Shown here piece by piece: positions 27,240 to 29,639 of a DNA stretch of 31,809 nucleotides. Under the pieces are notes generated by a model. That model was not told the origin of the DNA. It ran no database searches and saw only the letters and a list, made by a program, of their open reading frames with translations. A program made the translations under genes and the position numbers. The stretch is from a virus. Lineage: Duplodnaviria > Heunggongvirae > Uroviricota > Caudoviricetes > Peduoviridae. The first letter of the stretch is position 1. The number at the start of each line of letters is the position of its first letter. The stretch lies in the IMG/VR virus record IMGVR_UViG_2974787780_000001; one strand, 5' to 3'.

Positions 27240-27458
27240 ATGTTTCATTGTCCTTTATGCCAGCATGCCGCACATGCGCGTACAAGCCGCTATATCACTG
27301 ACACGACAAAAGAGCGTTATCACCAGTGTCAGAACGTGAATTGCAGCGCCACATTCATCACTTATGAGTCGGTACAGCGATACATCGTGAAGCCGGGAGA
27401 AGTCCACGCCGTAAGACCGCACCCGTTGCCGTCAGGGCAGCAAATTATGTGGATGTGA
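27240..27458 (+). CDS. ogr: Late gene activator Ogr (zinc-finger)
   Basis: ORF track 27177..27458; ATG at 27240 gives 72 aa MFHCPLCQHAAHARTSRYITDTTKERYHQCQNVNCSATF with a C-x2-C...C-x4-C zinc-binding pattern; P2 Ogr length. Confidence 0.9.
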   Translation: MFHCPLCQHAAHARTSRYITDTTKERYHQCQNVNCSATFITYESVQRYIVKPGEVHAVRPHPLPSGQQIMWM

Positions 27459-27468
27459 TCACAAAAAT

Positions 27469-27495
27469 AGCCCCTCAGTCGAGGGGCTTATTTAT
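27469..27495 (+). terminator. Rho-independent terminator after ogr
   Basis: AGCCCCTC-AGTC-GAGGGGCT hairpin followed by T-rich TATTTAT. Confidence 0.65.
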
Positions 27496-27500
27496 GGTCG

Positions 27501-27520
27501 ATGTGGACGCTATGTGGACA
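27501..27520 (+). repeat. Direct repeat pair ATGTGGAC (11-bp period); candidate integrase arm-type sites
   Basis: TGTGGACG at 27502-27509 and TGTGGACA at 27513-27520. Confidence 0.5.
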
Positions 27521-27575
27521 GTGGTTGACATAAATCCATTTATATCATCAGGTTAGGTGCTTTTTTGTGACACCA

Positions 27576-27602
27576 TCCCTGTCTTCCCCCACATGATGTG
27601 GG
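27576..27602 (+). terminator. Hairpin plus T8 (terminator-like) inside attP-like region
   Basis: CCCCCACAT-G-ATGTGGGGG followed by TTTTTTTT. Confidence 0.55.
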
Positions 27603-27697
27603 GGTTTTTTTTATCAATCACTTACATTGGTTCCCTTAAGAAAACAGCAACTTAAGAAAACCTATAAGGGACTGGAAGGGCTACAAAGTTCTTCGAG

Positions 27698-27716
27698 TGT
27701 GGACACAATGTGGACA
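27698..27716 (+). repeat. Second direct repeat pair TGTGGACA (11-bp period); candidate integrase arm-type sites
   Basis: TGTGGACA at 27698-27705 and 27709-27716, same orientation as the 27502-27520 pair. Confidence 0.5.
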
Positions 27717-27736
27717 CTCGGCAAGGATCTGATGCT

Positions 27737-28141
27737 TCAGTCGAGCAGGTCGATTTCCTTGATTTTTTGTACTGCACTAACCAATTCGTCAGGAGTGTAG
27801 TTAGTCGCATCAAGCTCTTTTACTTTTCCATCATCAAAAACAACGCGTAGCTTTTTGCCTCGTTGTAGATATGCACCAAAGACCCCAGCGACAGCGCCGA
27901 ATGCTGCAGTAGCAAATGGAAGAACTATGTTTAAGTATTCGGTTGTGCCGGCACCAAAACATATTGGCCCTCGTTGATATGCTATGGCAGCAGTGTCAAG
28001 CTCTTTGGCTAAACCAGCAATATTGCGTCCACTGGCCCTGCAATGGATTTTTCTTATGGAACTATTTGTCATCTCTTCAAAAATTCCTCTGTGTAAACGC
28101 ATTAAACTGGTCATCTCACTTTTTAAAGGTGTTATGACCAT
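27737..28141 (-). CDS. Hypothetical single-pass membrane protein (cargo gene between attP-like region and int)
   Basis: 134-aa ORF co-oriented with int and C; hydrophobic Gly/Ala-rich segment LNIVLPFATAAFGAVAGVFGAYL; AT-rich; start codon ambiguous (candidate ATGs at Met1, Met10, Met14, Met24 of the track ORF). Confidence 0.45.
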   Translation of the reverse strand: MVITPLKSEMTSLMRLHRGIFEEMTNSSIRKIHCRASGRNIAGLAKELDTAAIAYQRGPICFGAGTTEYLNIVLPFATAAFGAVAGVFGAYLQRGKKLRVVFDDGKVKELDATNYTPDELVSAVQKIKEIDLLD

Positions 28142-28292
28142 CCTCTGTGGTTACAACTGGTCGCTTAAGTTCATACCTGCCGAGAAAGCACAGGTTGATG
28201 GATTAAGCTTTGACGTCTATCAGGACGATGTTACATCGCAAGATGTGCTTATCGTCCTAGTTGATAATAAACGAACTATGTTGCCTGAATAA

Positions 28293-29306
28293 TTATCGAA
28301 TCGTTAAACCACCCTTTAGTGGGTTTAACGCTACTGCGTTTTGCAGGTAATCAGGCGCAAGGTGCGCATAGGCCATCGTCTGCTGAATGCTCGCATGCCC
28401 CAGAATCTGTTGCAGTGCAATTATGTTGCCCCCATTCATCATGAAATGACTTGCGAATGTATGTCGCAGGATATGGGTTGCCTGATTGGGTGGTATATCA
28501 GGTTTCACTCTGCGTAAAATCCCGCAAAACTTCTCATAATCAACTTTGAATAATTTGGCACTGGCCTCCTCTTTAACTTTTTTCTCCAGTTCCTTAGAAA
28601 TCGGCACGGTTCGCTTTTTACCGTTTTTGGTTTTCAGGAAGGTAACCCTGCAATTTGTAATCTGTGCTGGTTTTAGCGTGGCAACTTCCGTCCATCTTCC
28701 TCCAGTGCTCAGACATAAAAGCGCGACAAGTAAGTCATCACCAGCCAAAACATTTAACAGTTTTTCGATTTCTGCTTTTTCCAGGAACGTCATTTCAGGG
28801 TTGGCCTCCGTCAGTGGCGGCAGTCCGTGAATTGGGTGTTGCCCGGAAAATTCATCCAGTTGAATTAATTTTGTGAACATGCCGGATAATCGGTATATGT
28901 CACGATTTATCGTTGCAGCACTGATGCCATCACGTAGTCGCATGGAGCGATAATCCATCAAAGCCCTTTTGTTCATCCGGCTCACAGGTATATCACCTAT
29001 ACCGCTGATGGTTTTGAGCAGATGATTAAACTCTTTTGTCCCATGCTCGTGGTTTTGCCCGTGATATTTCCACCAGATGTCGAGCAATTCTGTCAAAGTT
29101 CGGCGGTCTGCTCGCTGGCCTGCCCATTCTTTCTGACTGGCATTGGCGATTGTGTATCGCTCAAATGCTACAGCCTCAGCTTTTCTTTCAAACTTCCTGC
29201 GGATGCGTTTTCCGTCGCGACCGCGAGGTCTAATGTCCACTTCATAGCGTCCATCATCGAGCTTCTTAATTGACATAAGAAAGCCCTCTGACGCTGTATT
29301 CACCAT
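28293..29306 (-). CDS. int: Tyrosine integrase
   Basis: 337-aa ORF (P2 Int length) with C-terminal catalytic region HILRHTFASH...GHASIQQTMAYAHL (H-x-x-R and Tyr nucleophile). Confidence 0.92.
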   Translation of the reverse strand: MVNTASEGFLMSIKKLDDGRYEVDIRPRGRDGKRIRRKFERKAEAVAFERYTIANASQKEWAGQRADRRTLTELLDIWWKYHGQNHEHGTKEFNHLLKTISGIGDIPVSRMNKRALMDYRSMRLRDGISAATINRDIYRLSGMFTKLIQLDEFSGQHPIHGLPPLTEANPEMTFLEKAEIEKLLNVLAGDDLLVALLCLSTGGRWTEVATLKPAQITNCRVTFLKTKNGKKRTVPISKELEKKVKEEASAKLFKVDYEKFCGILRRVKPDIPPNQATHILRHTFASHFMMNGGNIIALQQILGHASIQQTMAYAHLAPDYLQNAVALNPLKGGLTIR

Positions 29307-29345: not shown

Positions 29346-29639
29346 TTAACCAGTCTGTTTCCCGGAGTGGTCTGATTCTGTTGGTTTTTGCCCAATGTGT
29401 GCGAGAGCCGGCGCGATCTGACCAGCTTGTGGTGACGTATCACCAGTCATTAACCAGAGCGTATATTTTTTAAATAAAGGTGTATTTGTGACTCGCATCA
29501 CGATGCTGAGACCTGGGTCTTTATGCCCACTTTCGTAATTTTTGACTGTTCCTAGAGCTATCCCGCTAATTTCGCTGAATTTAGCCTGTGTTAAGCCTTC
29601 TGCTTTCCTAATCGCTTTCAGTTTTTCGAATGTCTGCAT
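29346..29639 (-). CDS. C: Immunity repressor C (helix-turn-helix)
   Basis: 97-aa ORF upstream of int on same strand; HTH LTQAKFSEISGIALGTVKNYESG; C-terminal ...KYTLWLMTG...GQIAPALAHIGQ resembles my recollection of P2 C. Confidence 0.85.
   Translation of the reverse strand: MQTFEKLKAIRKAEGLTQAKFSEISGIALGTVKNYESGHKDPGLSIVMRVTNTPLFKKYTLWLMTGDTSPQAGQIAPALAHIGQKPTESDHSGKQTG

Follow-up and report, generated by a model that had tools for sequence, protein, structure and literature searches.

Between its attachment site attP and its integrase gene int, the P2-like Yersinia phage VB-YPM-18 carries an interval which is missing from its close relatives and which encodes two small proteins on opposite strands, read from start regions that overlap head to head. 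The window analysed here is a single stretch of 31,809 bp, which megablast identified as the complete genome of this Peduovirus; two sister isolates were 100% identical to the queried stretch. We refer to the two genes as gene A (minus strand, 111 amino acids, aa) and gene B (plus strand, 78 aa), and to the pair as the cassette. Comparative analysis established that the insertion is real, that both frames code for protein, that they are conserved as a pair with its particular geometry, and in which prophage contexts they occur. As to what the pair does, the reading that we favour, tentatively and somewhat short of believing it, is that the interval is a conserved, mobile two-gene accessory cassette in the lysogenic unit, with gene A as a latent membrane effector and gene B as its controller, and that it would serve exclusion or abortive infection. 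An earlier note on this DNA, made from the letters alone, had seen here one AT-rich gene for a 134-aa membrane protein; the insertion and its AT-richness were real, and the one gene turned out to be two overlapping ones.

An insertion with two genes on opposite strands

The local order in the window is D, ogr, a terminator, attP, the cassette, int, the immunity repressor gene C and cox. Comparison of the ogr-int interval across related phages confirmed the proposed insertion. In Wphi, P2, L-413C, fiAA91-ss and about 80 other P2-like phage records megablast matched both flanks and found the interval absent, the flank matches coming in two pieces which span about 437 bp, against 1001 bp in the window. 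In the alignment with Wphi, 612 bp of the window (27728-28339) take the place of about 46 bp, which makes the window longer by about 565 bp. On the left the insertion begins 11 nt past the second right-arm TGTGGACA repeat, and on the right it ends within the last ~15 codons of int. The interval is a true accessory insertion, missing from close relatives, and it is located between int and the att site inside a packaged, virion-derived complete genome. The alternative that it represents conserved non-coding attP arm sequence did not hold, since the relatives lack the interval and the arm repeats lie outside the cassette; with the right-arm repeats left outside, attP is intact. The GC content of the interval is 42.6%, against 51.5% for the genome (10th percentile of same-size windows), and the adjoining int (46.3% GC) and C (44.6% GC) are likewise AT-rich. 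The premise that int abuts attP is correct for P2 and Wphi but not for phage 186, which has the unrelated orf69 in this slot. Along the last ~15 codons of int (28293-28339) the Wphi protein sequence is kept (…LQNAVALNPLKGG…) and many synonymous sites are changed. Since the protein is that of Wphi and the DNA has diverged, the cassette appears to have been brought in by recombination along with the int 3′ end of a diverged relative.

The minus-strand open reading frame (ORF) at 27737-28141, which had been described as co-oriented with C and int, is indeed present in that orientation and includes AAFGAVAGVFGAY. Compared with an 80%-identical E. coli relative, its gene A part differed at 20, 10 and 57 first, second and third codon positions, respectively, with 39 synonymous and 25 non-synonymous codon changes, and the ratio of non-synonymous to synonymous substitution rates (dN/dS) was about 0.07 in the three pairs with unsaturated dS. 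Thus, gene A is a real gene under purifying selection. Its length had been put at 134 aa, a figure that has to be given up: homologues from Serratia, Rahnella and a metagenome carry an in-frame stop upstream of the Met24 equivalent, the distant gene A proteins begin at Met24/25, and the NCBI Prokaryotic Genome Annotation Pipeline (PGAP) calls the same 111-aa coding sequence in E. coli. The conserved start is Met24 (28072). We therefore rejected the long ORF (27737-28141, 134 aa) as over-extended; the Shine-Dalgarno-like AGAGG in front of its ATG at 28141 abuts that codon directly.

Gene B points away from gene A and runs towards int, the stop codons of gene B and int lying directly side by side. 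Outside its overlap with gene A it showed differences of 1/5/12 by codon position, and dN/dS ranged from 0.12 to 0.44, also when the six codons overlapping gene A were left out. We examined 13 diverged loci, namely the window and loci from E. coli, Serratia, Rahnella, Citrobacter, Morganella and several metagenomic prophages; the gene B frame was open in all 13 and its protein alignable as MELF[IV]xSxK[LI]P…NWSLKF…. Gene B is thus a second real gene under purifying selection. Two plus-strand frames had been named as rivals of the minus-strand ORF, and one of them, 27984-28292, proved real in a shorter form (28056-28292), beside gene A and not in its place; the longer version was rejected, as its start is not conserved and a stop is found there in the 80%-identical relative. 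The other, 27916-28137, is non-coding, with stops in the same relative and differences mainly at second codon positions. The deposited record ON146440.1, annotated with Prokka, carries the plus-strand 78-aa gene B only and misses the better-supported 111-aa gene A, whereas both genes are called in RefSeq/PGAP annotations of E. coli.

At synonymous sites gene A had diverged from the 80%-identical E. coli relative by about 1.9 and gene B by about 0.4 (27737-28292 against L005 2997-3552), and the int 3′ end aligned beside the cassette differed from this relative at few sites only. Such unequal divergence across gene A, gene B and the int 3′ end implies a recombination breakpoint within the cassette.

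Could one or both ORFs be chance frames in an AT-rich spacer or attP arm? None of the family libraries that we searched annotates the cassette. Pfam and NCBIfam gave no match at the curated cut-off (Pfam had sub-threshold matches only, for the gene A family), PHROGs and PADLOC came back empty, and the Shine-Dalgarno signals are weak or oddly spaced, all of which would suit chance frames. Against this, substitutions concentrate at third codon positions, dN/dS is 0.07 for gene A and 0.12-0.44 for gene B, both frames stay open across the 13 loci with gene A identity down to ~25-35%, and the Int arm repeats lie outside the cassette. The substitution patterns exclude this explanation, to which we give practically no weight. 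Rfam yielded no match at gathering scores anywhere in the window, and none within the cassette; a Foldseek search of viral predicted structures (BFVD) gave none at E<=0.001, a profile search of PDB sequences none below E 0.19, and a literature search on the protein accessions and phage names found none.

The overlapping starts and the distribution of the pair

The head-to-head arrangement is conserved. An antisense partner ORF of 57-87 aa accompanies gene A in 13/13 loci, and in 11 of these there is an ATG from which the two genes would overlap by 14 or 17 nt. The N-terminal ~40 residues of gene B can be aligned throughout, and its C-terminal half is of at least three types. The invariant Pro11 codon of gene B, read as its reverse complement, supplies a GGAG-like element 12-17 nt upstream of the gene A ATG, so that the two genes constrain each other. 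Moreover, since the start regions overlap, each mRNA is necessarily antisense to the translation-initiation, or ribosome-binding, region of the other. In two distant loci, L022 and L023, a near-consensus sigma-70-like site (10/12) lies inside gene A and faces gene B, its TATAAT ending 31 nt before the gene B ATG. At the homologous spot of the window there is the weak -10-like hexamer AATATT, which has no matching -35 and is a hint only.

Gene A and gene B occurred as a pair in all 13 loci, whose gene A proteins reach down to ~25-35% identity with that of the window; 12 of the loci are in P2/186-like prophages and one in a P22-like prophage. Gene A was co-oriented with the repressor and int in every locus that has those genes. 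The Serratia, Rahnella and JGI metagenome loci show the same order as the window, that is, C, int, gene B (antisense), gene A, attL and cpxP. Elsewhere the pair follows int at a different chromosomal site (another P2/186-like prophage), follows int on a short metagenomic contig which ends before any att site or host gene (L028), lies near ogr (a further P2-like contig), stands at the prophage end adjoining raiA (Citrobacter), or is placed between the repressor and int, upstream of int (L021 and L026). In L026 a 201-aa VasI-like gene (Pfam PF11319, 4160-4765) was also observed between the repressor and the cassette, further cargo in the repressor-int unit. In Morganella morganii (L018, 5886-6366) it is a P22-like prophage that has the pair, with an Arc/Mnt-type repressor and a functionally uncharacterised 232-aa protein as neighbours; this indicates that the cassette has moved outside P2-like phages, and no int gene was called in this 12-kb locus.

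The cassette is rare. It was present in 12 of 5,426 complete E. coli genomes, in 11 of them at 100% identity and in one at 80%, always in a prophage just downstream of cpxP. In these prophages gene A occupies the left end, adjoining cpxP, as had been predicted for the integrated state. Among 60 sampled rows the Wphi-type prophages at cpxP all lacked the cassette, ten rows spanning 567 bp against 1132 bp in the window. Only three of 50,697 phage records contained it, VB-YPM-18 and its two identical sisters, also when tblastn with the family consensus was included. A word-seeded search gathered the gene A family into 12 clusters of close homologues, and a profile search of 1.84 billion representatives into 31 clusters at 50% identity.

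These positions bear on the idea that the cassette regulates integration or excision, gene B transcription or its product, convergent with int, tuning Int expression or the directionality of recombination. In favour of such a role, the cassette adjoins int in most loci and the stop codons of gene B and int abut or overlap; but L021 and L026 have the pair upstream of int, the Morganella locus has no int called, hundreds of Wphi-type prophages at cpxP function without the cassette, no DNA-binding domain was detected and the phage has its own Cox. We regard this role as very improbable.

The overlap also recalls type I toxin-antitoxin pairs with a divergent 5′ overlap, such as tisB/istR-1 and zorO/orzO. 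In both cases divergent units overlap by their 5′ ends at the translation-initiation region of a membrane-active product, a product that in the present case is only predicted. A toxin-antitoxin or addiction module stabilising the prophage, with gene A as a membrane toxin and gene B as antisense RNA and/or protein antidote, would agree with the overlap of initiation regions kept in 11/13 loci, the near-consensus promoter inside gene A toward gene B in two loci, the hydrophobic helix of gene A and the movement of the cassette between different prophage types. However, type I systems combine a toxin of less than 60 aa, the limit for all type I toxins to our knowledge, with a non-coding antisense RNA, whereas gene A encodes 111 aa, about twice as long, with a folded N-domain, and the antisense gene B is a conserved protein-coding gene whose selection at the protein level argues against an RNA acting alone. 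Furthermore, the family was seen only in prophage lysogeny regions and not on plasmids or at other chromosomal sites (in a limited sample), and Pfam detected no antitoxin-like DNA-binding domain. An addiction module is accordingly an explanation that we consider doubtful, behind the injection block discussed below.

The gene A protein, EACC1 and alternative functions

The gene A protein begins with an alpha+beta N-domain (residues 1-44), which a conserved RGPxCF-GAG-TE linker joins to a Gly/Ala-rich hydrophobic helix (~45-69); a basic KKLR patch comes next, and a beta-hairpin, one more helix and a last strand complete the chain. AlphaFold2, run with a 34-sequence family alignment, returned a model of moderate confidence (mean pLDDT, the predicted local distance difference test, 74.8) with a strand at 7-13, a helix at 15-27, a strand at 32-34, a loop with the RGPxCF-GAG-TE motif, a strand at 45-51, the hydrophobic helix at 55-70, strands at 74-79 and 84-87, a helix at 94-103 and a strand at 104-110. 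In the family alignment the hydrophobic helix is filled with small residues. The 19-residue Kyte-Doolittle maximum is 1.93 for the window gene A and 1.9-2.6 in nearly all family members, so that the segment exceeds the usual hydropathy threshold in nearly all of them.

These values make a single-pass membrane protein, as the earlier note had proposed, plausible, but the model sets the hydrophobic helix inside a predicted alpha/beta fold and not as an isolated span, and the charges give no clear topology. The gene A sequence has no signal peptide, its basic patch comes after the hydrophobic helix and not before it, and the 44-residue N-domain has a net charge of +4; a simple single-pass topology is therefore not obvious. 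The same evidence bears on the first of the alternatives, in which gene A would be a constitutive single-pass inner-membrane blocker of the Sie/Imm type, stopping DNA injection by related phages, and gene B would play no part of its own or a minor regulatory one. In its favour are the hydropathy maximum above 1.6, the place of gene A in the lysogenic unit at the prophage end, and the Morganella homologue in the Arc/Mnt-type repressor region of a P22-like prophage, the region to which that of P22 sieA corresponds. The int-att interval is, in addition, a reported minor defence hotspot of P2-like prophages, holding 3% of the recognised P2 defence systems (NAR 2026, PMC13586616), and defence hotspots of these prophages are also the subject of Rousset et al. 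2022 (PMC9122126). Like the cargo of those hotspots the cassette is variable cargo in the int-att slot; it differs in not being a system recognised by PADLOC v2 and in that the slot is otherwise empty in the sampled E. coli Wphi-type prophages at cpxP. The expectation that this layout belongs to a superinfection-exclusion or lysogenic-conversion gene is in keeping with the hotspot, but no similarity to any PHROG or PADLOC family, nor to a known superinfection-exclusion protein, was found. Further, gene A has no signal peptide, and with the basic patch behind the helix the charged N-domain of an injection blocker would have to be exported; such a blocker does not agree with a helix placed within a fold, and it leaves the strict conservation of gene B unexplained. 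We rank it above the addiction module, the int regulator and, last, chance ORFs, and still hold it to be unlikely.

The layout of gene A resembles that of EACC1 (Pfam PF19953, profile length 107, gathering score 23.6 bits), and we tested this resemblance. EACC1 has one conserved hydrophobic helix with a small-residue patch and alpha+beta extensions, and a caspase gene is its 3′ partner (Kaur et al. 2020, PMC7159879). As a monomer it is autoinhibited, and after cleavage near Asp49 its C-terminal fragment forms membrane pores; the N-fragment and two C-terminal strands together make up a sheet (Evans et al. 2025, bioRxiv 10.1101/2025.11.14.688446). The gene A family fits the description of EACC1, namely about 110 aa with one hydrophobic helix that has a central patch of small residues and with alpha+beta elements flanking it. 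The likeness extends to size (~110-115 aa), to short alpha+beta extensions on both sides of one small-residue-rich hydrophobic helix, to a predicted sheet built from N- and C-terminal strands, and to a short conserved linker directly preceding the helix, near the position that corresponds to the EACC1 cleavage site (Asp49). In Pfam scans, EACC1 matches were obtained from four divergent family members (P0033, P0045, P0047 and P0049, the last lying outside the 34-sequence alignment) and from the consensus of the distant members, at E values of 0.005-0.034; they are colinear, beginning with the hydrophobic region and reaching the C-terminal helix, over profile positions 39-105 of 107.

A number of results weigh against this comparison and against the effector reading that leans on it. 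All EACC1 scores fall below the gathering score of 23.6 bits, the consensus reaching 17.2 bits (E 0.0052) and the four members 14.6-17.0 bits, and the window gene A itself has no EACC1 match at E<=1 in the Pfam scan. When the 34 alignment members were scanned singly, three matched EACC1, and Adeno_PX and Tudor_3 were each matched by three as well. The profile search of 1.8 billion representatives recovered only the own ~110-aa family, with no match recognised as canonical EACC1 (the scanned members gave E 0.006-0.034), and fold searches with the moderate-confidence model returned generic alpha/beta matches only. A protease gene, the defining partner of EACC1, accompanied the cassette in none of the loci and no peptidase domain was reported; the neighbours at every locus were int, a gene B-type partner, attP or host genes. 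For both proteins PHROGs and PADLOC v2 gave no family at E<=1 and NCBIfam was likewise negative, and consensus promoter scans of the window showed no convincing promoter for gene A or gene B. With its scores below the threshold and no protease beside it, gene A is at most a candidate member of the EACC1 family. It differs from EACC1 also in its partner, a 57-87-aa protein encoded antisense and upstream where EACC1 has a 3′ caspase-like protease-sensor fusion, and in its hosts, being found in enterobacterial prophages whereas EACC1 occurs mainly in actinobacteria and other multicellular bacteria. That gene A might work like EACC1 is, on the similarities of layout, a reasonable hypothesis. Another sub-threshold candidate, Phage_holin_6_1 (PF09682), was rejected: the consensus scored 20.0 bits (E 9.5e-4, in the helix region) against a gathering score of 24.9, and the members gave E values of at least 0.066.

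Taken together, the predicted fold and the sub-threshold similarity to EACC1 point towards a latent membrane-permeabilising effector over a constitutive single-pass injection block. The cassette would ride in the repressor-integrase transcription unit of P2/186-like prophages, and gene A, a small EACC1-like protein, would be supplied in the lysogen by read-through of the C-int transcript. It may be harmless as long as its N-domain holds or masks the hydrophobic helix, and may permeabilise the inner membrane on release. The gene B mRNA, antisense to the ribosome-binding region of gene A, would control it, and the variable C-terminal half of gene B is perhaps a partner or sensor protein. The benefit would likely be exclusion or abortive infection of competing phages. 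A more specific version, a prophage abortive-infection switch built on a protease-independent EACC1 relative that is held in check by its N-domain and by the antisense gene, the mRNA silencing the effector and the variable protein sensing an invader or the state of the lysogenic transcript, is conceivable and in our estimation improbable as a whole.

Expression by read-through from the repressor promoter had been suggested from the layout alone. It remains a prediction, in agreement with the common strand of C, int and gene A, with the lack of any terminator-like site between int and gene A in the window, and with the prophages in which gene A lies inside the repressor-int unit, a position that fits expression in lysogens. 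Lysogeny operons carry accessory cargo elsewhere: lambda has rexAB, in which the membrane protein RexB works together with a second component, and orf69 occupies exactly the int-attP slot of the 186 lysogenic operon. Like these, the cassette comprises accessory genes at the prophage end which would be co-transcribed, in the case of gene A, with the repressor and integrase; those operons have no head-to-head overlap, and 186 Orf69 is dissimilar in sequence.

The attachment site, neighbouring features and what the cassette would mean

The positions of all features are collected in Table 1. The attP core matched at 100% in most of the 4,488 matching E. coli genomes (of 5,426), prophage-free ones included, and attL adjoins cpxP in the E. 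coli prophages; the 47-nt site just downstream of cpxP is attB. As the attP core is identical to attB in E. coli, the natural host of the phage is E. coli, although it was isolated on Yersinia pestis. The core contains a terminator-like site at 27586-27604, the hairpin CCCCCACATGATGTGGGGG followed by a T-run, and we take the region to be the 3′ end of the cpxP-derived small RNA (sRNA) CpxQ. On the minus strand, 27546-27612 resembles the Rfam model of the sRNA Hrs1, but below the gathering score (31.8 bits where 56.4 are required, E 5e-4); this match lies over the attP core hairpin and is probably driven by the terminator-like stem. The left-arm repeats are presumably arm-type Int sites, by comparison with P2 attP. 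For int, PGAP and Prokka place the start at 29276. In Yersinia phage GMS190 (L003, 1610-2011, minus strand) we observed another insertion of ~500 bp, between ogr and the pre-attP terminator (near window position 27460), which encodes a 133-aa protein with a signal-peptide-like N-terminus; phages of this group thus have a second slot for small cargo.

Table 1. Features of the attP-int region of VB-YPM-18 and of one comparison locus (positions in the window unless a locus is named)
Feature	Position	Strand	Basis or remark
ogr	27240-27458	+	
Left-arm direct-repeat pair ATGTGGAC(G/A)	27491-27510	+	Read from sequence; kept in Wphi and GMS190
attP core, 47 nt, with terminator-like hairpin	27569-27615	+	Identical to E. 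coli chromosome downstream of cpxP
Right-arm repeat pair GTGTGGACA, ATGTGGACA	27697-27716	+	Directly before the cassette
Replaced segment: cassette and re-coded int 3′ end	27728-28339		Alignment with Wphi and GMS190
Gene A, 111 aa	27737-28072	-	Codon-position test, PGAP coding sequence, homologues, AlphaFold2
AATATT, weak -10-like hexamer toward gene B	28019-28024	+	Homologous spot to the L022/L023 promoter
Head-to-head overlap of start regions, 17 nt (ATGGAACTATTTGTCAT)	28056-28072		Gene A and gene B ATGs
Gene B, 78 aa (MELFVISSKIPL...NWSLKF...)	28056-28292	+	Prokka, PGAP, substitution pattern, open frame
23-codon N-terminal extension of the 134-aa ORF	28073-28141	-	Probably untranslated
int, tyrosine recombinase	28293-29306	-	Pfam Int_N and Phage_integrase; Wphi alignment
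C immunity repressor, head of lysogenic transcription unit toward int and gene A	29346-29639	-	Pfam HTH_3; Wphi annotation
cox		+	
Phage 186 Orf69, LAPDGTYVGG-like repeats	L029 1158-1409	-	Unrelated to the cassette

The int-att slot, with its cassette, is packaged and carried by an infectious P2-like phage, and the present analysis corrects the public annotation, the phage record being without gene A. If the reading that we favour is true, a cargo of ~0.6 kb between int and attP, of the smallest kind that prophages have, would carry a complete membrane-acting defence or addiction module, and the pair would show in compact form how overlapping starts force mutually exclusive expression on two protein-coding genes. 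The EACC1 class of pore-forming effectors would then extend to enterobacterial phages and to a form without a dedicated protease.

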